This document shows positions 4,956 through 62,778 of a stretch of 64,000 nucleotides of DNA, piece by piece; within the stretch, counting starts at the first letter, position 1; every line of letters begins with the position of its first letter. The notes under the pieces were generated by a model. The model searched no databases, had not been told where the DNA came from, and saw only the letters and a list, made by a program, of their open reading frames with translations. The stretch comes from a phage, in sequence record PX441839.1. The stretch is one strand, 5' to 3'. The translations under genes were made by a program, and so were the position numbers.

Positions 4956-4958
4956 TTG

Positions 4959-45964: not shown

Positions 45965-46173
45965 CCCATCTTAAGCATGTGCTGTTCAGAGGTGGGCCAT
46001 TTATTATCAACCACAGCTTGTAGCCACTCATGGTCTATACCATCGTGAACATATTCACTGTACAAGGTGTCTAATGTTTCCACATGAGCAACAGATGCCG
46101 CCCCTGTCCTTACCAAATACTCCCTCAGTTCAGTGACACGTCTGCTTAGTTTACAGCTATCACAATTGCACAT
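45937..46173 (-). CDS. hypothetical protein (about 78 aa; start uncertain)
   Basis: Internal ATG at 46173 chosen to limit overlap with the upstream gene. Confidence 0.35.
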   Translation of the reverse strand: MCNCDSCKLSRRVTELREYLVRTGAASVAHVETLDTLYSEYVHDGIDHEWLQAVVDNKWPTSEQHMLKMGWVRIKEEE

Positions 46174-46492
46174 TATCCCACTCCAACACAATGAAATGAC
46201 TAAAACGAGAAGTGTGTGACCAACGCATGATGGTAGCATCTGCCCAAGCGATCTTGTCAGGATCTCCGCTGACTTTGATGTGTATGTTGTCACAGTTTTG
46301 TCTTACATCTACAACTTTGAATGTGTAATCCATCCAATTCAGGCGTTTACAGAGATATATTAATTGCTCATTCATCTCGTAAGAGAATTTGTAGAACCTA
46401 GGCTTCTCTTGGGCCTTGTAGATCTCCTCTAGCTTCTCTATCTGCTCATCTGTCATCTCCAGACGGTGCAGATGGTACAAAGTGTCTTCCAT
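46160..46492 (-). CDS. hypothetical protein (110 aa)
   Basis: Six-frame ORF. Confidence 0.45.
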   Translation of the reverse strand: MEDTLYHLHRLEMTDEQIEKLEEIYKAQEKPRFYKFSYEMNEQLIYLCKRLNWMDYTFKVVDVRQNCDNIHIKVSGDPDKIAWADATIMRWSHTSRFSHFIVLEWDNVQL

Positions 46493-46579
46493 ATTACCTC
46501 CAAATCGTTAGCAGAAAGCCCCACAATCGATTTTATGGGGTTCAGGTATGCGATGGTATTCCAAACACCACAGAAGTCC

Positions 46580-46789
46580 TTACAGAGCTTCCTGTGCAGT
46601 CGTCCCTTCCTTACATTCAGGACAATACCATACCCCAAGACCGGGGTGTTCTGGATCTTCCACAAAATTGTCAGGTTTCTCATGTAAGACGATTGATTGT
46701 CCAATCGCCGCACCTGGTATTTTGTAGAAGCAGATATGAGGACCAACACCGTAATGTGGGTACTCCCCATCTTTGCATGTCTCACACAT
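46580..46789 (-). CDS. small zinc-ribbon protein (69 aa)
   Basis: CETC ... CPEC; ATG at 46789 with GGAGATGA RBS. Confidence 0.45.
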   Translation of the reverse strand: MCETCKDGEYPHYGVGPHICFYKIPGAAIGQSIVLHEKPDNFVEDPEHPGLGVWYCPECKEGTTAQEAL

Positions 46790-47070
46790 CAAATCATCTC
46801 CATCGTTATAAGTACGTTATCCAGATCGTCGGTATTTAACTGTAGATCAGGATTAATACTATCCTCCACACGATGATAAATCAACCCCTTTTCCACATAC
46901 TGATAAACCACATCATGATATTTTCCCAACATGGTTAACCAGTCACATTCGTAAACAGTGACCACACATACCTTTAGTCCCATCTTTGCTGATCTCCAAG
47001 CTTCCCTCACAGCCATGAGGTGAGCTAATTCCAGATCATCCATCTTATTTTTATTCTTATTCAATAACAT
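46789..47070 (-). CDS. hypothetical protein (93 aa), first gene of the minus-strand block
   Basis: Six-frame ORF next to the AT-rich divergent region. Confidence 0.45.
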   Translation of the reverse strand: MLLNKNKNKMDDLELAHLMAVREAWRSAKMGLKVCVVTVYECDWLTMLGKYHDVVYQYVEKGLIYHRVEDSINPDLQLNTDDLDNVLITMEMI

Positions 47071-47099
47071 TATATAAACCTCTTATGATATCTTCGTCT

Positions 47100-47380
47100 A
47101 GTGCTGTGCAGTATACACCCTGTAGATCAGATGTCAAGACTACCAATTCAAAAAATTTTCAGATAATCTATGTATAAGATCTAAAGATCTATTATAAAAA
47201 GTTATAAGATCTTATTGTTTTTATAATTATTATGAATATAATGAATAATAATTATGGTTTTTATAATTTATGAGTGAAACGAATAAATTATAAGATCAAA
47301 TGGGGTTCTTATGAGCGTAGCGAATGGGTATAATCTTAATATAAGTATTGTGTGCCTTTTGAGGCAACGACGTAGGTTGT
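47100..47380. other. AT-rich divergent control region with TATAAGATC repeats (candidate origin / promoter hub)
   Basis: tataagatc at 47174, 47203 and 47288; agatct three times; long A/T runs; lies between divergently transcribed blocks. Confidence 0.4.
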
Positions 47381-47392
47381 GTGGAGGTGAGG

Positions 47393-47809
47393 ATGATTTT
47401 TCAGTTTGGTAACAGTTCAGTGGAGATTTCAGAAGATAGCTTCATGCAGATTCCTACCCACTGGGTAATGAACTTAAGCGGAGATGACTTAAAGAGGGCT
47501 TGCCTTCTTCGGTGGAGGTTCACATTCTTTGCTGATACGGGACTTTTCCCAGATGCATCCCTATGCTTCTATGAGTCTCAGCAGTCATTGTGTGACCTGT
47601 TTGGGATGTCAAAGTCTAGCCGGACAAAGGTGAGTGCTTGTCTAAAGAGGTTGGAGGCTGCTGGGGTAATATTTATACGCAGGGGCAAGTCAAGGGAGAG
47701 TGGGGAGTTGAAGCCACGGCATTACATTGTCCCCAATGACTCACTGCTTATTGAGAAGTACGGTATACGACCAGACTTGTGGGATGATAAGGAAATAATT
47801 GAAAAGTAA
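47393..47809 (+). CDS. putative HTH DNA-binding protein (138 aa)
   Basis: ATG at 47393 after GGAGGTGAGG RBS; helix-turn-helix-like segment GMSKSSRTKVSACLKRLEAAGVI. Confidence 0.45.
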   Translation: MIFQFGNSSVEISEDSFMQIPTHWVMNLSGDDLKRACLLRWRFTFFADTGLFPDASLCFYESQQSLCDLFGMSKSSRTKVSACLKRLEAAGVIFIRRGKSRESGELKPRHYIVPNDSLLIEKYGIRPDLWDDKEIIEK

Positions 47810-47867
47810 GTTGACATCCGGTGTGGTGTTTAGTACAGTTTCGACATTGAAAATGAGAGGAGAGAAG

Positions 47868-48158
47868 ATGAATATTCAAGAACAGGTTAAAATAACTTTC
47901 GAAGACCTTGTGGAACTACATAAGAAACGAAAATATCAAAAGGGCCGAGAAAAGAAGGCAATGGAGGATGTGGTATTCTTTTCTAAAGATGGTCATGGAC
48001 TTTCCAAGAAAGAGGCAAACAGGAAGGTTGATGCAGCGTGGGCTACACAACGGGACGCTGTGAACATTGTGTCAGGTATTGATAAGCAGATTGAATATGA
48101 ACTGAATGCCATAGGGCAGATTATCAACTTTGTTGCGGAAAAGGAGAGTGATAAATGA
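47868..48158 (+). CDS. hypothetical protein (96 aa)
   Basis: ATG at 47868 after GAGAGGAGAGAAG RBS. Confidence 0.5.
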   Translation: MNIQEQVKITFEDLVELHKKRKYQKGREKKAMEDVVFFSKDGHGLSKKEANRKVDAAWATQRDAVNIVSGIDKQIEYELNAIGQIINFVAEKESDK

Positions 48159-49069
48159 TTTCTTTACATCTCGATAACTTTAAAAGGGTTAAGCTTGAGT
48201 TTATGACGTTCAGCGGTGGAGAGCGTAACGTCCGTATAGGTGGACTGGATGTCGAAAAAGATGGTGTTCTTGAGTTTGCTGGATATGGGGAGGTTGACCA
48301 TCTCTCTCAACGTAAGTGGGAAAATTATCGTGTAACAGCACATATTCAAAGCTCAGATGATATCATGGATCTGTTACTTCTAAAGGATGCCATTGATCGT
48401 GTGGGCAATGGATGTTTGCGACGTGTATACTCAATCCTGCATCTTCCGTATCTCCCATATGCTCGACAAGACCGTGCAATGGTAAACGGGGAGGCGATCT
48501 CTGTTGTCGTTATGGCAAACCTGATTAACTCTCTTGAGTTTGATGCCGTGTGGATTGATGACCCGCATTCTGATGTTGGTCCGTCGCATATAAAAAACGC
48601 CGTAATTACCCCTCAGCATGAGCTTTTGCTGGACATGTGTAACAAAGATGATGTTCTTTCCGATGGAACAATCATTGTTGCACCTGATGCAGGTGCCATG
48701 AAAAAGGCAAGCAAGTTGGCTGAACTCGCTGATTTACCTCTCGGGACTGGTGGTAAACACAGGGATGTCAAGACAGGTAAGATTACAGGAACAACTTACA
48801 CAGGGCCAGATGTAAACGGTAAACGATGCCTGTTGGTAGACGATATTGCGGATGGCGCTGCCACATTTGTGTGTCTTGCAGAGAAACTAAAATCCCTGGG
48901 TGCAAAACAGGTTGATCTGTATGTAACGCACGGCATTTTCTCAAAAGGGATTGATGACCTTGAGCATATCGATAAGATTTATTCGGCATACCCCTGGAGA
49001 AAGAACGTTAAGTGGAAAAATGGAAAAGGTAAGCTAAATACGGTTGACATCGTAAGCTGGTTCGAGTAA
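48155..49069 (+). CDS. ribose-phosphate pyrophosphokinase (Prs)-like; candidate ADP-ribose pyrophosphate synthetase (NARP1 Adps)
   Basis: LPYLPYARQDR and LLVDDIADGAATF match the Prs motifs; immediately upstream of the NAMPT-like gene. Confidence 0.8.
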   Translation: MISLHLDNFKRVKLEFMTFSGGERNVRIGGLDVEKDGVLEFAGYGEVDHLSQRKWENYRVTAHIQSSDDIMDLLLLKDAIDRVGNGCLRRVYSILHLPYLPYARQDRAMVNGEAISVVVMANLINSLEFDAVWIDDPHSDVGPSHIKNAVITPQHELLLDMCNKDDVLSDGTIIVAPDAGAMKKASKLAELADLPLGTGGKHRDVKTGKITGTTYTGPDVNGKRCLLVDDIADGAATFVCLAEKLKSLGAKQVDLYVTHGIFSKGIDDLEHIDKIYSAYPWRKNVKWKNGKGKLNTVDIVSWFE

Positions 49070-49125
49070 AGTACATTTTATCGGGAGGCGTGTTGCCTCC
49101 CACATACAACGAAGGAGAGTTACAT

Positions 49126-50916
49126 ATGCTGAGTCAAAATAGCCCTATTCTTTTTGCTGATTGGTACAAGCCATCCCACATCTCCATGTATCATGGTAAA
49201 TCAGAGATCGTCCAAGATAACATGACACCACGTAATCACAAACATTACACTCACTTTTCTGACAATGATAAGCGTGTAATGATGGCTGGCCTTCAAGGAT
49301 TCATCAAATGGTTCCTTATCGAAAAGTTCAACAAGGATTTCTTCTCCCTGTCCAAAGAGGAGGCTCTGGCAGAGTTTAAAGAGATCTGTGACTTATCTAT
49401 TGGACCTGGTAAAGTTGAAACATGGGGATTCGAAAAGCTTCACGACCTTGGCTACCTGCCAATTGAAATTCGTGCTTTACCAGAAGGTACTTTGTGCCCG
49501 GTACAGGTTCCACTGTTCACTATTCAGAACACGCACCCTGACTTCTACTGGTTGCCTAACTATTTGGAATCTGTGGTATCTTCTGAAACATGGAAGACTA
49601 TCACCACGGCAACTACGTTCTGGCAGTATCGTAAACTGTCCGAGAAGTTCGCTGCACTGACCTGTGACGACAACAGTCACGTACCGTTCCAAAACCACTG
49701 CTTCGCCTATCGCGGACAGGCTGGTACGCACGATGCAGCGCAATCTGAGTTTGGTCAACTGATCAACTCTATGGGTACAGACACCATTCCGGCAATCCTG
49801 TATGCAAATAATTATTACTGGATGAAGGGTAAGTTTGTTGCAGGGTCAATTCCAGCATCTGAACATTCTGTTGCCACCACCAACATTGGGTTCATCGTTG
49901 GTCGTTTACGCTCAGAAAATCCAGAAATGTCTCTGGACGATCTCCGTTTCCATGCAGAGGTTGAGTTCCTTAAGCGTTACATTACGGAAATTTTCCCAAC
50001 TGGGCTTGTTTCTTATGTTGGTGACAGCTACGATTGGTATCGTCTAATTCGACATGGGGCCGAGGCTCTGAAAGAGGAAATCTTAGCTCGTGATGGAAAA
50101 CTTGTTTGGCGACCTGACTCTGGTGTTCCAGAGGACATTATTTGTGGGACTGTTGACTGGAGCAAGATTCAGGATTTAACTGATGCAGGTTCCCTTGAAT
50201 ATGCGGGTGAGTGGGCACTAGAAACTGCTGTTGAATCCGTTCAAGAAGATACACCTCACGGTGAGCAGGGTGACTGGGACGTATCGAGCCTGTTCTTGTA
50301 CGAAGGTGCTCTGTACCGTATGCGTGGAGAAATTGAATGGAATCGTTATGACAAGCAGTATTACTATGTCGATGGTTCACGAGTAATCTCTGTGGAGCCA
50401 GTGGAACTGGATGATGTGCAGAAAGGTGCCATTGAAGTGCAATGGGAAATTTTCGGTGGAACTGTGAACAGTAAAGGGTACAAGGTTCTTGACCCACACG
50501 TAGGTCTGATTTACGGTGACTCAATTTCTGTTGAACGTGCTAACACTATCTACAAGCGACTTGAGGCCAAAGGATTTGCATCAAGTAACATTGTTCTCGG
50601 TGTTGGTTCCTACACTGCACAGTTCGTTACACGAGACAGTCTCGGAATGGCAGTCAAGGCAACTGGAGCAATTATTGATGGTGAGCAGATCATGGTTGTT
50701 AAGGAGCCAAAGACAGATATTGGTAAGAAGTCAGCCAAAGGGTTCCTGAAAGTTGTTCGTAATAGTGAAGGTGAGTTAGAGCTTGTCGATAACCTTCAAC
50801 TTGACCAGGTGGATGATGCAGACAATGAATTACGAACTGTATTCAAGGATGGTGTCTTGGTTGTTGACGAGACTCTTGAAGAAATTCGTAACCGCGCCGC
50901 TTCAAACCTTAAGTAA
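49126..50916 (+). CDS. nicotinamide phosphoribosyltransferase (NAMPT/NadV)-like; candidate nicotinamide-ADPR transferase (NARP1 Namat)
   Basis: N-terminal SPILFADWYKPSH matches the NAMPT start (N.IL.TDSYK.TH); about 596 aa; ATG at 49126 after GAAGGAGAG RBS. Confidence 0.8.
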   Translation: MLSQNSPILFADWYKPSHISMYHGKSEIVQDNMTPRNHKHYTHFSDNDKRVMMAGLQGFIKWFLIEKFNKDFFSLSKEEALAEFKEICDLSIGPGKVETWGFEKLHDLGYLPIEIRALPEGTLCPVQVPLFTIQNTHPDFYWLPNYLESVVSSETWKTITTATTFWQYRKLSEKFAALTCDDNSHVPFQNHCFAYRGQAGTHDAAQSEFGQLINSMGTDTIPAILYANNYYWMKGKFVAGSIPASEHSVATTNIGFIVGRLRSENPEMSLDDLRFHAEVEFLKRYITEIFPTGLVSYVGDSYDWYRLIRHGAEALKEEILARDGKLVWRPDSGVPEDIICGTVDWSKIQDLTDAGSLEYAGEWALETAVESVQEDTPHGEQGDWDVSSLFLYEGALYRMRGEIEWNRYDKQYYYVDGSRVISVEPVELDDVQKGAIEVQWEIFGGTVNSKGYKVLDPHVGLIYGDSISVERANTIYKRLEAKGFASSNIVLGVGSYTAQFVTRDSLGMAVKATGAIIDGEQIMVVKEPKTDIGKKSAKGFLKVVRNSEGELELVDNLQLDQVDDADNELRTVFKDGVLVVDETLEEIRNRAASNLK

Positions 50917-50924
50917 ATAAACAT

Positions 50925-50947
50925 ACCGCCCTTTTGGGCGGTTTTTC
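50925..50947 (+). terminator. rho-independent terminator after the NAMPT-like gene
   Basis: accgccc-tttt-gggcggt followed by ttttt. Confidence 0.6.
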
Positions 50948-50963
50948 CACAAATGGAGTAAAT

Positions 50964-51155
50964 ATGAGAAACCTTGTCGCAAAACATAATCATAACCGTT
51001 CAGCAATCCACCTAGATCGCTCCAAGGAGCCTCAAAACACAATAGAGGAGGGTTTGCTAGACTACTTTGCAGAAAACGCTCAGGATGTCGCACAGGAGGA
51101 ATACAAGATGGCATCTGGATTACCAACGTTCTCCTTTGAACCTCACTGGCGTTGA
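50964..51155 (+). CDS. hypothetical protein (63 aa)
   Basis: Internal ATG of listed ORF 50934..51155. Confidence 0.4.
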   Translation: MRNLVAKHNHNRSAIHLDRSKEPQNTIEEGLLDYFAENAQDVAQEEYKMASGLPTFSFEPHWR

Positions 51156-51219
51156 CTATCGAAGAGTCCTACAGTAAAATTAAGTCATGGATTAACTAAC
51201 TGACATCAATGTAGGACTT

Positions 51220-51477
51220 ATGAACAATGAAAATTTCAAGCTATCCCTTAGCTTCGTAACCCCAGATATCAATTCACTCGAACACATCGAATATTTCCAC
51301 TCCTTTGAAGATGCCATTGAAGAAGCAAACGACATTGCATTTACTACGGTAGGATACCCTCTCGAAGATTGGAAAGTCCTTGACTTCGGATTTGAAAGTG
51401 TACTATACTCATTTTGTCCCAACGAAGCGGATTGCAGTTCCCGCTATAAACTTACGATAGTTAAGGAGGAGTTATGA
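51220..51477 (+). CDS. hypothetical protein (85 aa)
   Basis: Six-frame ORF. Confidence 0.5.
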   Translation: MNNENFKLSLSFVTPDINSLEHIEYFHSFEDAIEEANDIAFTTVGYPLEDWKVLDFGFESVLYSFCPNEADCSSRYKLTIVKEEL

Positions 51478-51692
51478 GGAAGTTTCAGTATATTTTGACC
51501 ATTGATCTGGATGATGAGGCTTTGAATGCGCTCGAGGAGTGGAAGCTGTTCCGAACGGCACATGGATTATCAGGCGATGGTATTGAAGAGTTTGCCAAGA
51601 AATTTATTCCCAGTGGAATTGAAGAACGTATTAAGGAAGACCTTCTTGGAAATACAACCCACCGAGTAACTTACGCAGGAGAACTGAAATGA
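51474..51692 (+). CDS. hypothetical protein (72 aa)
   Basis: Start overlaps the upstream stop. Confidence 0.5.
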   Translation: MRKFQYILTIDLDDEALNALEEWKLFRTAHGLSGDGIEEFAKKFIPSGIEERIKEDLLGNTTHRVTYAGELK

Positions 51693-51910
51693 TCCGTAAG
51701 CATAAAGTTTTAGTCACATTGAGTGTTGACTATGGGGACCCTACTATTAAGGCACTTGTGGATGAACGCATCTCTCAAGAGGGGATAACTGTTGAAGACA
51801 TTCACAATGATGCCAAGGAAGTCCTTATTGAAGCTGTTGAAGAAATGATTAAGGACGGTGTTGACGAAAACTGCGACGGACTTAAGTTTGAGTACGAGGT
51901 TGTGGAATGA
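51689..51910 (+). CDS. hypothetical protein (73 aa)
   Basis: Start overlaps the upstream stop. Confidence 0.5.
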   Translation: MIRKHKVLVTLSVDYGDPTIKALVDERISQEGITVEDIHNDAKEVLIEAVEEMIKDGVDENCDGLKFEYEVVE

Positions 51911-51937
51911 AAGACGAATTTGATGGTTTTGTAGGTT

Positions 51938-52138
51938 TTGGTGAAGGAATCAGTTATGCGGAGGATGTGGATATTTTTGATGAGCACCCTGATTTCTGAA
52001 AGAGATCATCCAAATGCGGATGAGGATAGAACTTGCTATTTCTGCGGTCATAGTTTCAAAGGTCCTTTCAGAAGCGTTATGTGCTGGAAGTGCCTAAATA
52101 AAAAGAAACCTATTGACAATGGAAACATAAGCGAGTAA
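51938..52138 (+). CDS. small Cys-containing protein (66 aa)
   Basis: CYFCGH ... CWKC. Confidence 0.4.
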   Translation: MVKESVMRRMWIFLMSTLISERDHPNADEDRTCYFCGHSFKGPFRSVMCWKCLNKKKPIDNGNISE

Positions 52139-52173
52139 TCTTAATACATAGCCCGTAAGGAATTGCGGGATTG

Positions 52174-52249
52174 CCGATTTAGCTCAGTTGGTAGAGCGCT
52201 TCACTTGTAATGATGATGTCGCAGGTTCGAGTCCTGCAATCGGCACCAG
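52174..52249 (+). tRNA. tRNA-Thr (anticodon UGU)
   Basis: Manual cloverleaf: acceptor gccgatt/aatcggc, D-arm gctc-agttggta-gagc, T-arm gcagg-ttcgagt-cctgc, CCA encoded; one U-U mismatch in the anticodon stem. Confidence 0.7.
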
Positions 52250-52254
52250 ATAAG

Positions 52255-52328
52255 GCCCAATAGCTCACTGGTGAGAGCCAACCCCTCATAAGGGTTAGGG
52301 CGGGGATCGTAACCCCGGTGGGCCACCA
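52255..52328 (+). tRNA. tRNA-Met (anticodon CAU; initiator, elongator or Ile-lysidine not distinguished)
   Basis: Acceptor ggcccaa/gtgggcc, anticodon arm aaccc-ctcataa-gggtt, CCA encoded. Confidence 0.75.
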
Positions 52329-52347
52329 ACCAAAGAGAGAATTTAGC

Positions 52348-52426
52348 GCGGGTGTATCTCATCCGTCTTCTAAACGGACGTTAACCGAGTAATTGGAGTA
52401 TGGGGGTTCGAATCCCTCCACCCGCG
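52348..52426 (+). tRNA. atypical tRNA-like gene with anticodon-type hairpin UCU (Arg?)
   Basis: Canonical T-arm ggggg-ttcgaat-ccctc and acceptor gcgggtg/cacccgc, but no D-arm, a 23-nt extra segment, no CCA, and the acceptor extends to a perfect 16-bp stem (52339-52354 / 52419-52434). Confidence 0.4.
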
Positions 52427-52450
52427 CTAAATTCTTTTGAGGTGTAAAAA

Positions 52451-52966
52451 TTGCTAAACTTGAAAAATCAAAATATAGATAAAGGCACGGGATATTTATA
52501 CGTGTACGATCCAAGTCACCCAATGGCAAATAAGTCTGGAAAGGTTTATGTTCACAGGTATGTTGCAGAGACGGGGTTTGGTATAAAACTAACACCTGAC
52601 CTGATAGTTCACCACAAGGATGAGAATAAGCTAAACAACGAGCTAACAAATCTCGAAGTTATGACTTATTCTGAACATGCCCGTCACCACCACGGGGCGG
52701 ATTTTGTAGAATGTGTATGCAAGACCTGTGGCAATGTAACTTTGAGGAGGCCCTCGGAAGTTGTATCATTTTGTTCACACAAGTGCTCAACAACATTCAG
52801 AAGGAAATTTGAAATCTCTCCTCAAGAGTTGCAGGATTTGGTTTGTAACTACCCAGTTAGTGTTATTGCAAAGATGTTTGGGGTTAGTGATACAGCAATA
52901 CACAAGAAATGTAAAACCCTAGGGATTAAAAAGATGCCGAAAGGATTCTTTTTAAGACTCCCTTGA
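52451..52966 (+). CDS. HNH homing endonuclease
   Basis: YVHRYVAE ... IVHHKDENKLNNELTNLEVMTYSEHARHH is a classic HNH motif; C-terminal Cys cluster and HTH-like region. Confidence 0.7.
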   Translation: MLNLKNQNIDKGTGYLYVYDPSHPMANKSGKVYVHRYVAETGFGIKLTPDLIVHHKDENKLNNELTNLEVMTYSEHARHHHGADFVECVCKTCGNVTLRRPSEVVSFCSHKCSTTFRRKFEISPQELQDLVCNYPVSVIAKMFGVSDTAIHKKCKTLGIKKMPKGFFLRLP

Positions 52967-52998
52967 CATAGGTAATTGATCCTGATAAGATAATTACA

Positions 52999-53397
52999 TT
53001 GTTTCATTTCGGGATCGACAATATGGCAAAAGCTGAGATCGTAACCCGTAAGCGTGGACGGCCTTCGAAAGAAGAAAGCACAGCCATTGCTACTGAAAAG
53101 GCAATTCTTGAATATCGCCTTAAAGTGGCGATGTTATTACCTACCGCTGTTGATACCCTTAAAGGTCTGTTAACGTCAGGCTCTGAAAAAGTTAAAGAGG
53201 GTACTGCAAAATTCCTGATCAATGAGGCTAAAGAGGTGTTTAACATCTACGTCGCAGAAGATAATCAGGACAGTGAAGCAGGTGGTACAGTATCTGCAAA
53301 CTCACAGACCCACGCTGGATCGTCTGATGAGATTAAAAACATTATGCCTCTTACTACGGAAATCCGTGAGTACAAGATGGCAGAAGGTGAAGATTAA
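52999..53397 (+). CDS. hypothetical protein with AT-hook-like RKRGRPSK (about 125-132 aa)
   Basis: Six-frame ORF; terminator follows. Confidence 0.45.
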   Translation: MFHFGIDNMAKAEIVTRKRGRPSKEESTAIATEKAILEYRLKVAMLLPTAVDTLKGLLTSGSEKVKEGTAKFLINEAKEVFNIYVAEDNQDSEAGGTVSANSQTHAGSSDEIKNIMPLTTEIREYKMAEGED

Positions 53398-53428
53398 GAC
53401 CCTTCGGGGTCTTTGAGTTTTCTTTTGA
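53398..53428 (+). terminator. rho-independent terminator
   Basis: gaccc-ttcg-gggtc followed by tttgagttttctttt. Confidence 0.5.
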
Positions 53429-53457
53429 CGATTATTTTCGTACAAAAGAGAATTTAA

Positions 53458-53544
53458 GCCAGGTTATACCGTAGGGGTAGCGGAGGAGACTGTAAATCTC
53501 TGGTCATTGCGACTCGGGTGGTTCGACGCCATCACCTGGCACCA
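53458..53544 (+). tRNA. tRNA-Tyr (anticodon GUA), type II
   Basis: Acceptor gccaggt/acctggc, anticodon arm ggaga-ctgtaaa-tctct, long variable arm, CCA encoded. Confidence 0.7.
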
Positions 53545-53549
53545 AATAT

Positions 53550-53639
53550 GGAGAGTTGGCAGAGCGGCTGAATGCACCTGACTTGAAATCAGGCGACCGT
53601 TAACTCGGTCCGTGGGTTCAAATCCTACGCTCTCCGCCA
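53550..53639 (+). tRNA. tRNA-Ser (anticodon UGA), type II
   Basis: Tracks E. coli tRNA-Ser: ggagagt-tg-gcagagcggctgaatgc ... cctga-cttgaaa-tcagg ... gtggg-ttcaaat-cctac ... gctctcc-g-cca. Confidence 0.85.
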
Positions 53640-53720
53640 AATATCGCCCCTTATATAAAAGAACACCTGCGCGGCTGGAAAAACCCACTCAACAGTTCTT
53701 GAAAAGGGGCAACAATTTAC

Positions 53721-53798
53721 GGATCATTAGCTACAATTGGTTAGAGCGGCTCACTGTTAATGAGACGGTTCGTGGTTCAAGTCCACGATGATCCGCCA
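53721..53798 (+). tRNA. tRNA-Asn (anticodon GUU)
   Basis: Acceptor ggatcat/atgatcc, anticodon loop ctgttaa, T-arm cgtgg-ttcaagt-ccacg, CCA encoded. Confidence 0.8.
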
Positions 53799-53805
53799 AA
53801 CAATA

Positions 53806-53950
53806 GAAGGGTAACTTAAAGGCGGGTGTCCTGCCACTGGCCTCCAAAACCAGTCGTAAGGGGTTAGATTCCTCACTCTTCTGCCAAGTCGGGGTGTGCG
53901 CCAAATAAGAGCGGGTTAGCAACTGTGTTGTAGATTAGTCTACCACCCCA
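53806..53950 (+). ncRNA. degenerate tRNA-like sequences / possible small stable RNAs within the tRNA cluster
   Basis: Hairpins actgg-cctccaaaa-ccagt and gtaga-ttag-tctac plus tRNA-like termini (agaaggg ... ctcttct-g-cca), but no canonical cloverleaf. Confidence 0.3.
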
Positions 53951-53960
53951 CACAATAAGA

Positions 53961-54036
53961 AGTCCTATAGTTTCAGCGGTTAAAATACTCGCCTGTCACG
54001 CGAGAGTCACGGGTTCGAATCCCGTTAGGACTGCCA
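53961..54036 (+). tRNA. tRNA-Asp (anticodon GUC)
   Basis: Acceptor agtccta/taggact, anticodon arm ctcgc-ctgtcac-gcgag, T-arm acggg-ttcgaat-cccgt, CCA encoded. Confidence 0.8.
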
Positions 54037-54043
54037 TTTCTGA

Positions 54044-54119
54044 TGGAGATTAGCTCAGTAGGTAGAGCAAGCGACCGATAATCGCTGGGTCACTGGTTCA
54101 AGTCCAGTATCTCCAACCA
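54044..54119 (+). tRNA. tRNA-Ile (anticodon GAU), with unusual C at position 33
   Basis: Acceptor tggagat/atctcca, D-arm gctc-agtaggta-gagc, anticodon arm agcga-ccgataa-tcgct, T-arm actgg-ttcaagt-ccagt, CCA encoded. Confidence 0.65.
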
Positions 54120-54124
54120 AATAC

Positions 54125-54201
54125 CTCCGTGTAGCTCAGTCTGGTAGAGCGATTGCTTTGGGAGCAATAGGTCCAACGTTCGAGTCGTTGTACGGAGACC
54201 A
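54125..54201 (+). tRNA. tRNA-Pro (anticodon UGG)
   Basis: Acceptor ctccgtg/tacggag, anticodon arm attgc-tttggga-gcaat, T-arm caacg-ttcgagt-cgttg, CCA encoded. Confidence 0.85.
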
Positions 54202-54204
54202 AAT

Positions 54205-54279
54205 TGGGGATTAGCCAAGCGGTAAGGCACGAGGCTTTGATCCTTGTATGCGGAGGTTCGAATCCTCCATCCCCAGCCA
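54205..54279 (+). tRNA. tRNA-Gln (anticodon UUG)
   Basis: Acceptor tggggat/atcccca, anticodon loop ctttgat, T-arm ggagg-ttcgaat-cctcc, CCA encoded. Confidence 0.8.
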
Positions 54280-54284
54280 AATAA

Positions 54285-54361
54285 GCGTCCTTAGTGTCAG
54301 TGGTCTAACACTCCATCCTTCCAAGTTGGAACCACGGGTTCGAATCCCGTAGGACGCTCCA
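54285..54361 (+). tRNA. tRNA-Gly (anticodon UCC)
   Basis: Acceptor gcgtcct/aggacgc, anticodon loop cttccaa, T-arm acggg-ttcgaat-cccgt, CCA encoded. Confidence 0.8.
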
Positions 54362-54489
54362 AAATTACACCTCCGGTGGTCAGGGAACTGGCAATCAGGA
54401 GGTTTTTCTTTATGTGTCCGTGGTGGTTCGGACTTTATCCCACCAGAATTCTTATAATAATAAAAAATATCTCCTCTCCTTCGCCTTAG

Positions 54490-54516
54490 GCCCTCCATTA
54501 CGGAGGGCTTTTTTAT
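54490..54516 (+). terminator. rho-independent terminator after the tRNA cluster
   Basis: gccctcc-attac-ggagggc followed by ttttttatt. Confidence 0.55.
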
Positions 54517-54560
54517 TGGCAGCTATAGTGGTAAAATATAGAATATTAACAGGAGGTAAT

Positions 54561-55208
54561 ATGCTTGAAATTTTAACATCCTCTGGAACAAGGCCACCAG
54601 AGGACGAGGTTCTTTTCCTTTTTGATGCAGAGATGCAAAATGAAGGAGATACCGTGATGATTGACCAAGTATCCAAGAACACCCTAGCCCAGCGCCTGGC
54701 GACTTACGCTGGACATCCGTCATATCCCAACAGGATAGTAAACCATGCGGATTACGGAATGGTATTCTCACTTGGTGGGAACTTTTACCATTGGACTTCA
54801 AACTGGTTCAAGCCCCCTGAGAATATACCACCAGGAAAGAAACTGGTGTATCAGATTGAGTTTGCCTCCCCTGTCACAGGGTATTGTTTTGGAACAGGTG
54901 GTCACTTAACAGGGAGCACATGGTGGTTAGGCTTAGAAATTAGCAAGTCAACAACATACGGTATGACCCTAATATCCAGCAGAACATCATCTTCTGGAGC
55001 TTCTACAACCATCCCAGGAGATAACCTGATGCAGGATATCCGTGTTGAGTACATAACAAACACAACTATTCTTGCAAGAAGGGAAGGTTTTTCTGGAACG
55101 GGTGGTCCTTACACTCATGATCATAACTTTTTCACGAATATCTATATTTTTGGTGGACCACGGGATGCATCCGGTATGGGACAGCCAGAACTTTATACGG
55201 AAACCTGA
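54561..55208 (+). CDS. hypothetical protein (215 aa)
   Basis: ATG at 54561 after AGGAGG RBS; Gly/Ser/Thr-rich, no recognisable motif. Confidence 0.5.
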   Translation: MLEILTSSGTRPPEDEVLFLFDAEMQNEGDTVMIDQVSKNTLAQRLATYAGHPSYPNRIVNHADYGMVFSLGGNFYHWTSNWFKPPENIPPGKKLVYQIEFASPVTGYCFGTGGHLTGSTWWLGLEISKSTTYGMTLISSRTSSSGASTTIPGDNLMQDIRVEYITNTTILARREGFSGTGGPYTHDHNFFTNIYIFGGPRDASGMGQPELYTET

Positions 55209-55239
55209 AAAGAGTTAAAGTTTCTTTGGAGAAAAGATA

Positions 55240-55608
55240 ATGAATTACCTTTTAAAGTACAAGAAGTATATTTTCGGGGCAACATTGGCTATTTTGATAA
55301 TTCTGTCTGCGAATATGTACATCAGTTCGGTAGATAAGAAGGCCCACGCTAGAGGTTTTGAAGAGGCAAACTCTGCATGGATGGTCAAAGGAAGGCAATA
55401 CGTTGATCTCTTGGACCAGTCGTACAAAGAAAATAGAGAACTGAATTACGAATTGAACAAGGCAACCAGGCAGGATGCTAAGAAGGACCAAGATAGAAGG
55501 TCTAAGACTGCCGCCGCTCAAGTTGACCTTGCAAGAGATCCTTCTGCTAATTCCAAAACCGTCAGTGACAAGTTTGTAGATCTCTATAACGTATCTTTGG
55601 GGGAATAA
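55240..55608 (+). CDS. putative i-spanin (Rz-like inner-membrane spanin)
   Basis: N-terminal transmembrane helix then charged periplasmic domain; immediately upstream of a lipoprotein gene with overlapping start. Confidence 0.5.
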   Translation: MNYLLKYKKYIFGATLAILIILSANMYISSVDKKAHARGFEEANSAWMVKGRQYVDLLDQSYKENRELNYELNKATRQDAKKDQDRRSKTAAAQVDLARDPSANSKTVSDKFVDLYNVSLGE

Positions 55609-55928
55609 TGAAGAAGAGATTCTTAGGGGTTATCCTTGCCTCGGTAATCATAATGGGTTGCTCAAATAATAAAGAGATTCCAGATGTTCAGTTGGCAGAA
55701 ATTACAACCGAGAAATTGATAGACAAGCCCAATCCAGAGTTAATGGAGGATTTACCTCAGAAGACAAAACTGGAAAGAGGTATGAGTGAAGGAGAGGTTG
55801 GGGAAATTATCAGCAACAATAACCTTCGTGCAGGGACCATAGAATGGAAATATGAAGCACTCCAGCAGTATGTCTGCAACATATTTAAAGAACCTGTCGG
55901 AGAGGTTTGTACAAAAGGAGATAATTAA
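55608..55928 (+). CDS. putative o-spanin (Rz1-like outer-membrane lipoprotein)
   Basis: Signal peptide with lipobox IMGC. Confidence 0.5.
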   Translation: MKKRFLGVILASVIIMGCSNNKEIPDVQLAEITTEKLIDKPNPELMEDLPQKTKLERGMSEGEVGEIISNNNLRAGTIEWKYEALQQYVCNIFKEPVGEVCTKGDN

Positions 55929-56452
55929 TGCTTGAGATGATGATTGCAAAAGGGGGTGAAAAATCATCAGGTTCTCCTATGGACTATGCTCAGTTTTTAA
56001 ATTGGTTGCAGAATAACAATATAAGGGCTGTTACAGCAAGAAGATCCTCAGAGGAGAGAGTTCTCCCTATACAGGAAGCCCTTGAATTCACATACTCAGC
56101 AGGTACATTCATAGAGAGCGGAACCATGTGGGGAAGCCCCTACTCCACTAGGGTGACGTATGACTCAATGTGGCAGTATGTGGCGCGACACTGTTTTCCA
56201 AACTTATCTTTATATGAAAGAGAGCGGCAGGTAAACAGGCTGGTTCTTCTTAAGAAAACAGCCACGGTCAATTATCCAGACTATATATCGGTAAACCGGA
56301 ACGGTTTTCAGAGTGCCAGTTATGGCAATTACCTTGGATTTTTCGTTACACATTTTGTTTATTATGATGAATCGTCTAAACTGATGAGGGTAGTAAAACC
56401 ATCTCAAGGTTATATTGGGAGTGGTGCCCTTTTTACAGGCGAGTTCGACTAA
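55928..56452 (+). CDS. hypothetical protein (174 aa)
   Basis: Six-frame ORF; a terminase small subunit by position is possible but unsupported by motifs. Confidence 0.45.
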   Translation: MLEMMIAKGGEKSSGSPMDYAQFLNWLQNNNIRAVTARRSSEERVLPIQEALEFTYSAGTFIESGTMWGSPYSTRVTYDSMWQYVARHCFPNLSLYERERQVNRLVLLKKTATVNYPDYISVNRNGFQSASYGNYLGFFVTHFVYYDESSKLMRVVKPSQGYIGSGALFTGEFD

Positions 56453-56559
56453 CCATGTTCAAAGCCCCTTGCAGAGATGCTTGGGGCTTTATTTTTGTAC
56501 CCGATTGTGGTAATATACCTATTATTAACATCAAGTCAAGTAATTTTTAGGGGAACCCT

Positions 56560-58044: not shown

Positions 58045-58059
58045 CACTTAGGAGAGGCT

Positions 58060-59571: not shown

Positions 59572-59593
59572 TCCATAAGCTGAAATTGACTAC

Positions 59594-60217
59594 TTGCAAA
59601 ACGAAATGAAGGGTGTTAAAATAAATATCACGGAGCAATTGATGGAAACCATTTATTTTTCTGACCTGCCTAAACAGTCATCTCTGACTCTTATTCAAAA
59701 GAGTCGGGCTGTTAAGAAGGCCAACGAGCTTTTAGCAAAAGGATCTTCTAAAGAGGATGCAATTGCTGGAGCCGTTGGCTCCATCCAAATTCATAAATCT
59801 GCTGAACCAGTAGAGCAAATGATTTCTTACGATATCATTTATGAACCGGATGTAAGGGATGCCCACAATCAGTGGATGTCCAAAGAAACGCTTGTTAAAG
59901 CACAAGCTGATTTTAAAAAGGCACAGGAGATAGGGGCAGTTACCGAAAACCTGTATCACCTTTTTGACACAGATTCTTTCAAGATCGTTGATCACTGGAT
60001 TCAACCAGAGTTCGATGTCACAGTTTCCGAGACAGGCGAAGTAATTAAGGCTGGCTCTTGGGTAGCGAAGGTCCAGTATTCTCCAGAAGTATGGGAATTG
60101 AAGAAAGCCGGAATCGTAGGCGGTCTGTCGTTACAGTGCGGCGGTATGTTGAACGAAGAAACTGGTGAACTTTACGACCTTGATTTCAGCATTTCACTGG
60201 AGGATGAAGAGGAATGA
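59594..60217 (+). CDS. putative head morphogenesis protein (207 aa)
   Basis: Position between portal and scaffold-like genes; acidic C-terminus. Confidence 0.4.
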   Translation: MQNEMKGVKINITEQLMETIYFSDLPKQSSLTLIQKSRAVKKANELLAKGSSKEDAIAGAVGSIQIHKSAEPVEQMISYDIIYEPDVRDAHNQWMSKETLVKAQADFKKAQEIGAVTENLYHLFDTDSFKIVDHWIQPEFDVTVSETGEVIKAGSWVAKVQYSPEVWELKKAGIVGGLSLQCGGMLNEETGELYDLDFSISLEDEEE

Positions 60218-61281: not shown

Positions 61282-61297
61282 TTGAGGACTAAACAAA

Positions 61298-61732
61298 ATG
61301 GCTAAAGCATACGTTGCCACCCTTGAGGGTGATTACTCTGATATCGTTCTGGGCCGTGTTGTTGCCTTTGGTGACACTGGTTGGAACTTCAAAGAAGTTG
61401 AGATGGCTTGGAGCGACACCCTGGTAGCAGGTCTGGTTGTTAAAGCTGATGGTACACCTCTGGCTACTGCCGCTGACGCTGCTGACGCTTACGGCGTTCT
61501 GGTTGACCGTAAAGTTCTGCCTGGTGTTGAGCAGTTCAGCAACGGCGCACTGGCTGATGGTGAGAAAGTTCCTATGGTACTGGCTGTACGTGGCCTGACC
61601 CTGAACTTCCACAAGCTGGTAACAGCAGATGGTGTTGCTATTAATGATGCAGTTGCAGCGCAACTGGAAAAGAATGGCAACCAAGTAACCAAATATGTAG
61701 TCGGCACTGACTTCCTGCCGTCAATTCTGTAA
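61298..61732 (+). CDS. putative head decoration / capsid accessory protein (144 aa)
   Basis: Strong AGGA RBS, host-optimal codon usage, directly upstream of the major capsid gene. Confidence 0.4.
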   Translation: MAKAYVATLEGDYSDIVLGRVVAFGDTGWNFKEVEMAWSDTLVAGLVVKADGTPLATAADAADAYGVLVDRKVLPGVEQFSNGALADGEKVPMVLAVRGLTLNFHKLVTADGVAINDAVAAQLEKNGNQVTKYVVGTDFLPSIL

Positions 61733-61755
61733 TTTTTAGTAGGAGATATTTTAAC

Positions 61756-62748: not shown

Positions 62749-62754
62749 TAAACA

Positions 62755-62778
62755 GGCCACCTTCGGGTGGCCTTTTTT
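62755..62778 (+). terminator. strong rho-independent terminator after the capsid gene
   Basis: ggccaccttcgggtggcc followed by tttttt. Confidence 0.65.

Follow-up and report, generated by a model that had tools for sequence, protein, structure and literature searches.

Where do the Vequintavirinae (V5-like phages) begin to copy their DNA? These broad-host-range lytic phages are used in biocontrol and therapy, and to our knowledge no replication origin has been mapped in them. The question is raised by a gap between two divergent gene blocks in the 64-kb stretch of phage DNA analysed here (the window), which is ~97% identical to Salmonella phage SSBI34 (Vequintavirinae); position 47.2 kb of the window corresponds to about 36.2-36.5 kb in SSBI34. 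We read this gap, 47071-47392, as a divergent control region for early expression in an SSBI34-like phage of the Vequintavirinae and as its probable replication origin, a combined reading to which we give slightly less than an even chance.

A divergent junction at the most AT-rich point of the window

A sequence-only reading had described an AT-rich intergenic gap of about 300 bp, and the gap (322 bp) is indeed the most AT-rich spot of the window: G+C is 15% over 47144-47293, the window minimum, with a next lowest value of 26%. It lies between gene blocks that run leftward (13973-47070) and rightward (47381-63441), at the major strand switch and at the cumulative GC skew minimum. For rV5, skew changes were judged merely to track the direction of transcription, so that replication was not separable from transcription in that analysis (PMC3606486). 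The first gene of the leftward block (46789-47070, minus strand, from the ORF list) encodes a 93-aa protein of phrog_12865 (E 9e-48) and keeps its place in 31 phage records, with amino-acid identities of 70-98%; the first gene of the rightward block (47393-47809, plus strand) encodes a 138-aa winged-helix protein of phrog_8453. Synteny of the junction and the winged-helix gene extends to Certrevirus, Seunavirus, Henunavirus and Avunavirus, to the unclassified Vequintavirinae ChuuTotoro and ABPH49, and to KP13-16 (filed under Stephanstirmvirinae), and no similarity of the region to plasmids or E. coli genomes was found. Small ORFs in the gap were considered and set aside: ATGs inside the palindromes P1-P3 described below open unconserved frames of 7-13 aa, and automated small CDSs in one relative appear spurious.

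A promoter role for the gap is close to certain. A promoter scan gave a sigma-70-type promoter on the minus strand, P_L (47110-47137), with 11/12 consensus matches (TTGACA-16-TATACT; -35 at 47137-47132, -10 at 47115-47110) and a GATC (47125-47128) in its 16-nt spacer. Its TGTCAA does not vary, and Certrevirus and the A7_1 clade retain a -10-like hexamer. P_L matches the Certrevirus early promoter type, which carries an UP element (PMC7344957), and directly upstream of its -35 lies an A/T tract (47141-47162, minus strand; AAAAAATTTT at 47150-47159) that is kept as AAATTTnAAAnnTTT in all aligned relatives and that, by analogy with the Certrevirus promoter consensus, may act as an UP element. On the plus strand, TATAAT (47329-47334) and TAATAT (47337-47342) could be rightward -10 elements; a TAnTAT-like hexamer is held at this place (47329-47342) in relatives, no good -35 accompanies it, and the consensus promoter scan reported no rightward promoter there. 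The rightward TTGACA promoter of all other genera is absent here because the leader is ~40 bp shorter. As a conserved promoter upstream of P1 we rejected TTGTTT-16-TATAAT, which is confined to this lineage. The next rightward sigma-70-type promoter (TTGACA-17-TACAGT; 47811-47839, plus strand) serves the genes after the winged-helix gene, and relatives annotate a terminator directly after the winged-helix gene, which suggests that this gene is a small transcription unit by itself. A literature search found no transcription start sites for Vequintavirinae.

It is possible, though somewhat unlikely, that the locus is devoted purely to transcription control, as a composite cassette of stem-loops and early promoters that contains no origin. 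The hairpins would then be supercoil-sensitive cruciforms, insulators between the divergent promoters, or sites for proteins, use of the promoters would become Dam-dependent through the GATC boxes, and the winged-helix protein would be an autoregulated repressor or activator of early genes. The strength and conservation of P_L favour this account, and the rightward -10-like elements and a palindrome in the winged-helix leader would fit an operator; evidence against it comes from the conservation of the hairpins, the winged-helix protein and the comparison with known cassettes, each taken up below.

GATC boxes had been part of the case for an origin or a divergent promoter region. Three copies each of TATAAGATC and AGATCT had been counted in the gap, correctly so: TATAAGATC starts at 47173, 47203 and 47289 (plus strand) and AGATCT at 47177, 47185 and 47207. 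Across the 64-kb window TATAAGATC occurs 4 times against 0.49 expected from shuffles (0/100 shuffles reach 4), and AGATCT 35 times against 19 expected. The 322-bp gap holds five GATC sites where local composition predicts 0.78 (p<0.0005), a density ~3x the window average, with five other 200-bp stretches of the window also having at least five. The main cluster spans 47173-47211 (TATAAGATC at 47173-47181 and 47203-47211; AAGATCTA at 47176-47183 and 47184-47191), and two further sites lie at 47125 and 47294, the latter within the third TATAAGATC (47289-47297). Most related genera are likewise enriched in GATC at the junction (4-6 sites vs ~1 expected) and the relatives keep a cluster of WAGATCW boxes. 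These boxes drift in number and position between genera, and the stretch that bears them is only ~70% identical to the relatives; the exact 9-mer TATAAGATC is not the conserved unit.

A T-rich tract, GATCTTATTGTTTTT (47208-47222, plus strand), fits the oriC 13-mer consensus GATCTnTTnTTTT with 2 mismatches, and TTGTTTTTA is conserved in all clades. Because the window holds 21 matches to GATCTnTTnTTTT this loose, among them those at 47208 (plus) and 47285 (minus), the 13-mer likeness is weak by itself. The NPPY motif from which an adenine methyltransferase was attributed to the phage lies in an ORF (23092-23652, minus strand) for a putative N6-adenine methyltransferase that may act in trans on the GATC boxes, but its likeness to Pfam Dam is weak and below the cut-off (E 0.004). 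DNA of Certrevirus CB7 behaves as Dam-methylated (PMC7344957).

Three tandem hairpins and their recurrent tip

Palindromes at 47223-47328 had been overlooked in the sequence-only reading. They belong to a conserved block, 47215-47328, which holds three tandem imperfect palindromes, P1-P3, built on one plan: arm, GA, 2-3 bp, GNA-type loop, 2-3 bp, GA, arm. P1 (47223-47255, plus strand; ATAATTATTAT-GA-AT-ATA-AT-GA-ATAATAATTAT) and P2 (47261-47293, plus strand; TTATAATTTAT-GA-GT-GAA-AC-GA-ATAAATTATAA) are predicted to form hairpins or cruciforms and lie inside the 15% G+C minimum. The predicted hairpin P3 (47308-47328, plus strand) reads CTTAT-GA-GC-GTA-GC-GA-ATGGG, and its core GCGTAGC (47315-47321) is an instance of the d(GCGNAGC) mini-hairpin motif. 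Scanning both strands of the window (128 kb-strands) for this architecture returned the P1-P3 locus and one chance match. The three follow one another in tandem, always on the strand that codes for the winged-helix protein, and are absent in PVP-SE1, Hena1, KP13-16, Av-05 and rV5, which do have the winged-helix gene.

The P1-P2 core is 88% identical to CR3 and 82% to A7_1, against 76-78% for the 93-aa gene and 60-65% for the winged-helix gene in comparison with the same two phages; in these alignments P1-P2 is better conserved than the genes that flank it. The arms of P1 show compensatory changes (a T/A swap in A7_1; A-T to C-G in ChuuTotoro and the IMG/VR contig L175), and the inner stem of P2 is GT/AC in the window and CT/AG in ChuuTotoro. 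When the P1 and P2 hairpins are pooled, 96% of cells pair, 8/13 pairs are changed on both sides and none on one side only, and 0/500 shuffles reach the observed score. For P3, the window and Certrevirus have an identical GAGCGTAGCGA, and the plan is retained with four different inner stems across lineages, other sequences being found in A7_1 (TGGC GA GA GGCT TC GA GCCA), ChuuTotoro (TGC GA GAC GGA GTC GA GCA) and L175 (GA AC GGA GT GA). On this comparative evidence, the dyad symmetry of the palindromes is maintained by compensatory substitutions and the plan is under structural selection.

Two alternatives are directly affected. That the gap is an AT-rich spacer with no specific function, its repeats arising from low complexity by chance, has next to no probability and is already contradicted: short repeats, direct as well as inverted, do arise in numbers in AT-rich DNA (29 inverted pairs were listed) and counts of single 9-mers are small, but an 80-nt AT block is near-invariant across genera whose proteins are 50-77% identical, substitutions are compensatory, one architecture is triplicated in tandem, and the arms in a shuffled-apex control look like chance. 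For the purely transcriptional account, conservation above that of the coding flanks and three tandem copies exceed the needs of a promoter spacer.

It would also be conceivable that P1-P3 act as RNA, as part of a rightward transcript that forms a structured leader or a small RNA before the winged-helix operon and might serve in stabilisation or processing, in an antitermination-type role or as a replication primer RNA, but we consider this distinctly unlikely. The strand-specific features are what recommend it. The tandem 5'-GA/3'-AG purine mismatches and the GNA loops exist on the plus strand, the complement of which would have pyrimidine mismatches; the P3 arms require two T.G (U.G) wobbles on that strand; and the first arm mismatch in other lineages is G.T or T.G in three cases, T.T in one and A.C in none, though these counts are very small. 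In Vequintavirinae the hairpins always have the orientation of the winged-helix gene, and hairpins with the same apex occur in cellular genomes, such as those of Bacteroidales, downstream of tRNA-Ser. Against an RNA element, a conserved sigma-70 promoter upstream of P1 is absent, stems of 11 A-U pairs would be weak, fold z-scores are alike for the two strands and for DNA vs RNA, in a multi-copy 719-kb contig the GA strand runs antisense to the genes beside it, and an Rfam covariance-model search of 46800-48000 found nothing better than E 1.9. Nearest-neighbour folding gives the hairpins ordinary energies (z ~-2.7 on both strands), as computed with models that miss the special stability of d(GCGNAGC) (PMC13037366). 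A terminator scan found nothing. Pseudo-ToxI-type RNA repeats, known from phiTE, were considered and set aside for want of any likeness in sequence or period.

Hairpins capped by the P2 apex, GAGTGNAACGA, turn up in numerous unrelated viral contigs, much more often than with the shuffled control, for which the distribution of arms is chance-like. A tip on the plan of P1-P3 caps long hairpins in more than 10 phage lineages that are not related, as well as in genomes of bacteria and archaea; in Bacteroidales, for example, hairpins with the same apex lie ~100 nt downstream of tRNA-Ser genes. A first loose DNA pattern scan for the hairpin had given mostly chance AT-rich matches and was discarded, and a literature search for the apex strings returned unrelated primers only. 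One viral contig, of 719 kb, has at least 17 intergenic copies of the P2-type hairpin, 51-58 nt upstream of a gene start in 8/17 examined copies, where it stands just before an A8-TTGAAA-17-TAnAAT-like promoter with its GA apex on the template strand; this is the apex orientation seen for P_L and it favours transcription control. In other viral lineages, the apex adjoins genes for the large terminase (in contig L144, with three tandem 20-bp repeats), a GIY-YIG homing endonuclease, an integrase and Bro-N/antirepressor proteins, and no replication gene is common to these neighbourhoods. Given such mixed contexts, the hairpins are not specific to origins or to replication.

Such neighbours would suit another kind of DNA transaction site or the relic of a mobile element, be it a packaging or recombination site or a hairpin for a structure-specific nuclease or transposase, fixed at the junction. 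The pac site of phage P1 likewise features clusters of GATC hexamers. We hold this to be very improbable: the locus is syntenic, stable across several genera and away from the terminase genes, no transposase or nuclease gene adjoins it consistently, and in the databases the genomes of relatives are linearised close to a second non-coding region (9265-10376) and not at 47071-47392.

The form observed combines a purine-N-A triloop, a stem of 2-3 bp and a tandem G.A mismatch with arms whose sequence is free. A bolder proposal, which we regard as rather unlikely, is that the tip GA-NN-GNA-N'N'-GA is an undescribed, widespread nucleic-acid structural module that folds on one strand, either through intrinsic high stability (as an extended relative of the GCGNAGC mini-hairpin) or through a conserved recognising factor, and that its three tandem copies in Vequintavirinae are a new strand-opening or priming element at the origin, replacing iterons. 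Should one shared mechanism lie behind the recurrence of the apex (priming, promoter-linked cruciforms or a hyperstable ssDNA cap, for example), the apex would amount to a general regulatory signal that genome annotation now passes over.

The winged-helix neighbour and the case for an origin

The first plus-strand gene was predicted to encode an HTH protein, and sequence and fold matches agree that 47393-47809 encodes a winged-helix protein. It matches phrog_270, 428, 678, 186 and 8102, families whose annotation in each case is replication initiation or DnaD-like (E 2e-7), and every functionally annotated PHROG match belongs to a replication-initiation or helicase-loader family except one weak HTH match. 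In the fold comparison, made with an alignment-based model (a single-sequence AlphaFold model with pLDDT 52 was discarded), the top matches are the N-terminal domains of RepA initiators, followed by ORC2/Cdc6 winged helices and DnaD/DnaB(Bsu). That these matches are to replication initiators and helicase loaders, not repressors, counts against a purely transcriptional locus. A Pfam search gave sub-threshold wHTH matches only (Cdc6_C E 0.0025, RP-C 0.06), a PDB sequence search with the family profile gave nothing significant, and a search for homologous proteins gave two matches by a method that is too insensitive. The matches to initiator families pass no curated threshold and a second domain is lacking; judged from sequence and predicted fold, the protein most resembles the DNA-binding domain of replication initiators.

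In the leader of its gene lies the palindrome TGCCT-TTTG-AGGCA (47353-47366, plus strand), a candidate operator or iteron. A YCC-loop-GGR palindrome is present at this site in every genus, with one copy in the window and 2-3 in PVP-SE1, Hena1, KP13-16 and Av-05, and the window copy resembles the four rV5 iterons TGTCCGTGATACGGACA; we infer that the winged-helix protein may bind here. Downstream of a small winged-helix gene in rV5, annotated as encoding a replication initiation protein, lie four palindromic iterons of 19 bp together with an AT-rich tract that contains GATC boxes. Homology of the window protein to rV5 gp075 was considered and rejected (a 17-residue BLAST match only; hhalign probability 2%), and since it is not demonstrable, rV5 is used as an analogy only.

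The earlier suggestion of an origin or divergent promoter hub holds as far as the conserved divergent junction, the near-consensus leftward sigma-70 promoter, the GATC clustering in most related genera and the replication initiators among the best matches of the neighbour are concerned; it does not hold for the exact 9-mer. An origin is plausible from the conserved divergent promoter junction, the recurrent GATC clustering and the initiator-like winged-helix neighbour taken together, and three structure-conserved hairpins beside a replication-initiator-like gene make this the best origin candidate so far for this phage group. If the gap does serve as an origin, divergent transcription would under-wind the AT-rich spacer, P1-P3 would melt or extrude, and GA/GA-mismatched, GNA-looped tips would form on the plus strand. 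The winged-helix protein would bind near the hairpins, perhaps at the leader palindrome, which would also provide autoregulation, and would aid loading of the phage helicase-primase, while methylation of the GATC boxes by host Dam or the phage NPPY enzyme could modulate opening or promoter use.

Several signals of other origins were searched for. No direct-repeat iterons appeared in a repeat search of 46000-49200, no DnaA boxes (TTWTNCACA) in 47071-47392, and IHF sites in the gap were either absent or unconserved. A consensus DnaA box does lie at 46889-46897, inside the 93-aa gene and 180 bp from the gap, and is conserved in CR3, A7_1 and phiTE. The origin could instead be harboured in a second conserved non-coding region, 9265-10376, which is equally a candidate for essential cis-acting DNA. 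A transposon-free intergenic region of ~2 kb in Bas54 (HIDEN-SEQ preprint) probably corresponds to the 2.6-kb convergent gap of rV5, not to the locus studied here, and so lends no support to an origin at 47071-47392. The outcome is a precise, testable origin candidate of ~250 bp with named elements and an adjoining candidate initiator, and a second locus for contrast.

Likeness to known systems

Transcription control has its closest model in the PeSL cassettes of T4-type phages, which are stem-loop and early-promoter modules in large myoviruses (PMC4122927). Like these, the window has stem-loops upstream of a sigma-70-like early promoter in a large lytic myovirus, and the hairpins of the 719-kb contig are used in a dispersed manner. 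PeSL stems, however, are GC-type terminators directly beside the promoter and come in dozens of copies, whereas the 64-kb window has a single locus of three tandem copies and so no dispersed cassette; the hairpins have AT-only arms, lack a U-run and lie ~85-190 bp from the P_L -35, so they are not terminators of the PeSL kind.

The remaining comparisons concern the origin reading. With E. coli oriC (GATC-initiated 13-mers) and P1 oriR (five GATC heptamers) the gap shares a dense GATC cluster in an AT-rich stretch, some of its sites beginning T-rich 13-mer-like tracts (e.g. GATCTTATTGTTT), as well as Dam-positive enterobacterial hosts and, in the phage, a putative adenine methyltransferase; it differs in having no DnaA boxes and in GATC positions that vary between genera. 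The N-terminal DNA-binding domain of RepA_N plasmid initiators (pSK41/pTZ2162 RepA; PDB 4pql, 4pt7, 4pta, 5kbj) is matched in fold, but with a TM-score of only ~0.5 and no significant sequence or Pfam match, and the window protein has no C-terminal domain and its gene no internal iterons. The lambda-type origin combines iterons with an AT-rich region and is activated by transcription nearby. As at ori-lambda with its O protein, an unwinding-prone AT-rich stretch adjoins a small winged-helix initiator-like gene and is flanked by promoters, and rV5, with its four palindromic iterons and AT tract beside the wHTH gene, has a lambda-ori-like layout. Unlike ori-lambda, the window has one leader palindrome in place of a direct-repeat iteron array, what repeats in it is a long AT hairpin with a mismatched tip, an O-like C-terminal domain is missing from the protein, and the origin would lie outside the gene, not inside it.

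The hairpin tips have their own counterpart. Mini-hairpins of the d(GCGNAGC)/d(GCGNNAGC) type occur in the complementary-strand origins of G4, St-1 and alpha3, in RSF1010 ssiA and in the early promoters of N4, where they mark ssDNA for primases or polymerases (PMC13037366). The window comes from a large dsDNA myovirus that, unlike N4, has no N4-type virion polymerase. P1 and P2 have a GNA/ANA loop, but their loops are closed by T-A, not C-G, and their AT arms run to 9-12 bp, which makes them relatives of the motif and not members. All three hairpins end in GNA-type triloops, the P3 core GCGTAGC fits the motif exactly, and sheared G.A pairing at the GA/GA step of P1-P3 is plausible.

A probable divergent promoter region and GATC boxes at the junction

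On a crude gene map, a leftward gene block (13973-47070) and a rightward block (47381 to at least 63441) diverge from a 322-bp gap (47071-47392) between a 93-aa gene (46789-47070, - strand) and a 138-aa winged-helix gene (47393-47809, + strand). The minimum of cumulative GC skew falls in this gap, which is as strongly AT-rich as the sequence-only reading had stated: 47144-47293, at 15% G+C, is the lowest of the 64 kb, the next lowest being 26%. Salmonella phage SSBI34 (MZ520832, Vequintavirinae) shares 96.7% identity with 46000-49000, and Certrevirus phages (CR3, CR8, CR9 and phiTE among them) share about 75% over part of it. The layout of leftward genes, AT-rich gap, winged-helix gene and, zero to two genes further downstream, PRPP synthetase and NAMPT genes is shared with PVP-SE1, Hena1, Av-05, ChuuTotoro, ABPH49 and KP13-16 (filed under Stephanstirmvirinae). 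Ten tRNA genes (Thr, Met, Tyr, Ser, Asn, Asp, Ile, Pro, Gln and Gly) lie 5 kb downstream of the junction at 52173-54361 (+ strand).

The best promoter in the gap points leftward, with 11 of 12 consensus positions matched on the - strand (-35 TTGACA, 47137-47132; 16-nt spacer; -10 TATACT, 47115-47110). Its -35 is invariant and its -10 retained in other clades, and AAAAAATTTT (47150-47159) is placed as the UP element that the published Certrevirus early promoter has (PMC7344957). On the + strand, TATAAT (47329-47334) and TAATAT (47337-47342) resemble -10 elements but have no convincing -35; relatives keep a TAnTAT-like hexamer at this position, though not the perfect TATAAT. All other genera have a GTTGACA promoter right before the winged-helix gene that is absent in the lineage of the window and SSBI34, where the leader of this gene is about 40 bp shorter than in relatives (compared at 47367-47392). 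A further promoter lies 3' of the winged-helix gene (47811-47839). In relatives a terminator is annotated behind the gene, which thus looks like a small transcription unit of its own. A role of the gap as a divergent promoter and control region for early genes is almost certain.

A YCC-loop-GGR palindrome precedes the winged-helix gene in one to three copies in relatives and once in the window (TGCCTTTTGAGGCA, 47353-47366). Two or three tandem units lie in this leader in the loci of PVP-SE1 (L013, 2380-2430), Hena1 (L014, 2370-2480), KP13-16 (L017, 2385-2440) and Av-05 (L015, 2370-2425), each unit being a short palindrome followed by the SD-like AATAATTAGG or, in KP13-16 and Av-05, by an SD-like tail resembling it. 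The final unit in Hena1 overlaps the real ribosome binding site. These units may be operators, iterons or a translational control element.

The three copies of TATAAGATC (47173, 47203 and 47289) and three of AGATCT previously counted in the gap are borne out, the whole window having 4 of the former versus 0.49 expected. GATC itself occurs 5 times in the gap (0.78 expected from local composition) and is over-represented window-wide (356 versus about 240 expected). The exact 9-mer is not what is conserved. The gap was aligned first to eight sequences from Certrevirus and SSBI34 and next to POP15, phiTE and the A7_1/UPEC06 clade, and the box region came out as its least conserved part (about 70% identity); relatives have four to seven boxes of the degenerate form WAGATCW, but in other positions. 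GATC enrichment is also found in Certrevirus, the A7_1 clade, PVP-SE1, KP13-16 and Av-05, and was not seen in Hena1, ChuuTotoro/ABPH49 or the rV5 gap. For the adenine methyltransferase with which these sites had been associated there is a candidate, an NPPY-containing ORF (23092-23652, - strand), whose likeness to phage Dam methyltransferases is weak and sub-threshold (Pfam PF05869, E 0.004).

Three tandem hairpins of a common plan

Within the gap, 47215-47297 is nearly invariant (88% identity to CR3, 82% to A7_1), and the flanks are less conserved (76-78% for the 93-aa gene, 60-65% for the 138-aa gene). Two 33-nt imperfect palindromes lie here, P1 (47223-47255; ATAATTATTAT-GA-AT-ATA-AT-GA-ATAATAATTAT) and P2 (47261-47293; TTATAATTTAT-GA-GT-GAA-AC-GA-ATAAATTATAA), and a third, P3 (47308-47328; CTTAT-GA-GC-GTA-GC-GA-ATGGG), follows. 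In all three an outer arm leads through GA into a 2-3 bp stem that closes a loop of 3-4 nt (mostly G-N-A), and on the far side the stem is again followed by GA and then by the pairing arm. By relaxed criteria, chance accounts for one occurrence of this plan across both window strands and for four in some 95 kb from other loci.

Among 10 distinct variants of P1 and P2, 96% of cells pair, and 8 of 13 pairs are altered on both sides with none altered on one side only, a score reached by 0 of 500 shuffles (slid controls were 29-65% paired). Compensatory changes include a T/A swap in P1 of A7_1 and A-T to C-G in P1 of an IMG/VR contig (L175), and ChuuTotoro/ABPH49 have new arms and a CT/AG inner stem. 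P3 keeps its plan with unrelated sequence in A7_1 (TGGC GA GA GGCT TC GA GCCA), ChuuTotoro (TGC GA GAC GGA GTC GA GCA) and L175 (GA AC GGA GT GA). Repair of the GA/GA mismatch step to Watson-Crick pairs is never seen. P1-P3 are absent from the loci of PVP-SE1, Hena1, Av-05 and KP13-16, which have other AT-rich palindromes (for example ATAATAC-GTA-GTATTAT, twice in Av-05).

These patterns suggest that what is selected is the folding of one strand, as single-stranded DNA or as RNA, or else a cruciform whose tip is specific; a sequence-reading dimeric protein is not indicated, since the arms of P1, P2 and P3 differ within one phage. In the Vequintavirinae loci all GA steps are on the strand of the 138-aa gene, and the P3 arms of the window need two T.G wobbles on the + strand. 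Nearest-neighbour folding lets P1 and P2 form on either strand as DNA or RNA (z -2.1 to -3.0) without discriminating among these options. No conserved sigma-70 promoter was found upstream of P1, and we regard action of the hairpins at the RNA level as improbable. Among described elements the d(GCGNAGC) mini-hairpin comes closest; it is known from the G4, St-1 and alpha3 priming sites, RSF1010 ssiA and N4 promoters (PMC13037366), and the P3 core GCGTAGC is an exact fit to it.

The capped hairpin in other genomes

The P2 core TATGAGTGNAACGAATA was found 72 times in IMG/VR, in 41 cases between complementary arms of at least 6 bp (up to 21 bp) whose sequences differ between lineages. With the apex shuffled but flanks and composition retained, a control pattern matched 59 times, with chance-like arms (42, 13, 3 and 1 for 3, 4, 5 and 6 bp; Fisher p = 5e-13 for real versus shuffled). 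In GTDB genomes, 29 of 123 matches have arms of at least 6 bp. Judged by sequence, the capped hairpin is a real, widespread element, and a literature search found no description of it. The apex GAGTGNAACGA preferentially tips hairpins with unrelated arms in many unrelated viral contigs (L140-L207, L096) and some bacterial and archaeal genomes (L208-L327).

The contexts are mixed, so the capped hairpin is not specific to replication. Ahead of a large terminase gene it takes the form of three 20-bp repeats in tandem, and elsewhere it adjoins Bro-N/antirepressor, GIY-YIG endonuclease and integrase genes. At least 17 intergenic copies occur in IMGVR_UViG_3300035703_002088, a 719-kb viral contig of roughly 23% G+C, where 8 of the 17 examined lie 51-58 nt upstream of an opposite-strand gene start; A7-8-TTGAWA follows each copy, a -10-like hexamer comes next in most, and a second GC hairpin of P3 type (GA GC GTAA GC GA) precedes many. 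In Bacteroidales from GTDB, the element lies about 100 nt downstream of tRNA-Ser genes.

The cassette of the 719-kb contig, dispersed at least 17 times (L149, L153, L155, L158, L159, L165, L174, L182, L184, L187, L191, L196, L199, L200, L203 and L206), starts with A7-8-TTGAWA, a variable GC hairpin (GA GC GTAA GC GA in some) and TTAGAATAATCTT, followed by a P2-type hairpin and a second A7-8-TTGAWA; about half of the copies have a gene start about 40 nt further on, and the GA apex is on the template strand of the downstream gene. The Bacteroidales loci (L260 at about 1000-1200, L270 at 4500-5100, L295, L306, L280, L303 and L239) have a conserved element of about 200 nt directly 3' of the tRNA-Ser gene and terminator, which holds the apex hairpin (CCTTATGAGTGAAACGAATAAGG) and ends in a copy of the tRNA 3' end. 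Neither Rfam nor ARAGORN matched it, and it may derive from a tRNA or be one end of an integrated element. Pairing of hairpin and GATC also occurs outside Vequintavirinae: in IMGVR_UViG_3300029511_000159 (142 kb, roughly 48% G+C; L096, 8690-8850), an AT island precedes a Bro-N gene at a divergent junction, and in it six GATC boxes follow a roughly 50-nt palindrome that carries the P2 apex.

Replication origin or transcription control

The 138-aa protein belongs to phrog_8453 (function unknown), with secondary matches to phrog_270 (replication initiation protein, E 2e-7) and the O-like phrog_678; its Pfam winged-helix matches, including Cdc6_C and plasmid RP-C, are all sub-threshold. Of 13 family members from an exhaustive HMMER search, 7 match phrog_270, and others match phrog_428, 8102, 391 and 186 (DnaD-like loader). 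With an alignment-based AlphaFold model (pLDDT 91.5), the top seven Foldseek matches in the PDB are N-terminal DNA-binding domains of staphylococcal plasmid RepA initiators (4pql, 4pt7, 5kbj and 4pta; E 2e-4 to 4e-3). By fold and weak sequence signals, we consider it a putative initiator-like protein, these signals falling short of demonstrating family membership.

The gap had been proposed as an origin or divergent promoter hub, and the conserved leftward promoter, AT island and initiator-like neighbour agree with this. That it is also a replication origin is the best explanation, to which we give somewhat less than an even chance. In favour are the extreme richness in AT, clustered GATC boxes with tracts resembling 13-mers, divergent promoters on either side from which transcription would under-wind the DNA between, an initiator-like neighbour whose position is conserved across genera, and tandem hairpins of priming-site type. 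Against it, the gap has no iterons or DnaA boxes. A DnaA box consensus (TTTTCCACA, 46889-46897), one of only six in the window, lies inside the 93-aa gene at a distance of 180 bp from the AT-rich gap; CR3, A7_1 and phiTE share its position, but since it is coding sequence its conservation may stem from the protein. The small 138-aa protein could instead be a regulator, and in other genomes the capped hairpin occurs near promoters in many copies; transcription control only is a distinctly less probable reading. The small remainder goes to a role in some other DNA transaction or to no function at all.

The window has a further conserved non-coding region, which also speaks against an origin in the gap. 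This AT-rich 1.1 kb at a convergent junction (9265-10376) has minima of 26-30% G+C, 76-80% identity to Certrevirus non-coding DNA, a Fur-box-like palindrome in three to four copies (GAATGATTATCATTAA) and an 18-nt inverted repeat that pairs perfectly (9715-9732 with 9843-9860), and the PBES 02 record ends within its equivalent. It is a candidate packaging site or origin. Its probable counterparts are the non-coding gap of 2.6 kb in rV5 and, in Bas54, the intergenic region that is transposon-free (10.1101/2025.11.20.689424); the Bas54 result thus bears on 9265-10376, not on 47071-47392.

Among known systems, rV5 (NC_011041) has a lambda-ori-like layout that favours an origin in the gap by analogy. 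Just downstream of its 116-aa winged-helix gene (gp075; annotated product, replication initiation protein) come four palindromic iterons of 19 bp (CTGTCCGTGATACGGACAC) and then an AT-rich tract that contains GATC boxes (L019, 2431-2808; about 64930-65307 of the record, - strand), a layout not annotated there; according to the rV5 paper, its origin could not be defined from skew (PMC3606486). The likeness is one of analogy because homology of the rV5 and 138-aa proteins was not demonstrable in our comparison. The gap region is a variant, previously undescribed, of known control-region types, and the capped-hairpin module is the part that could be new in kind.
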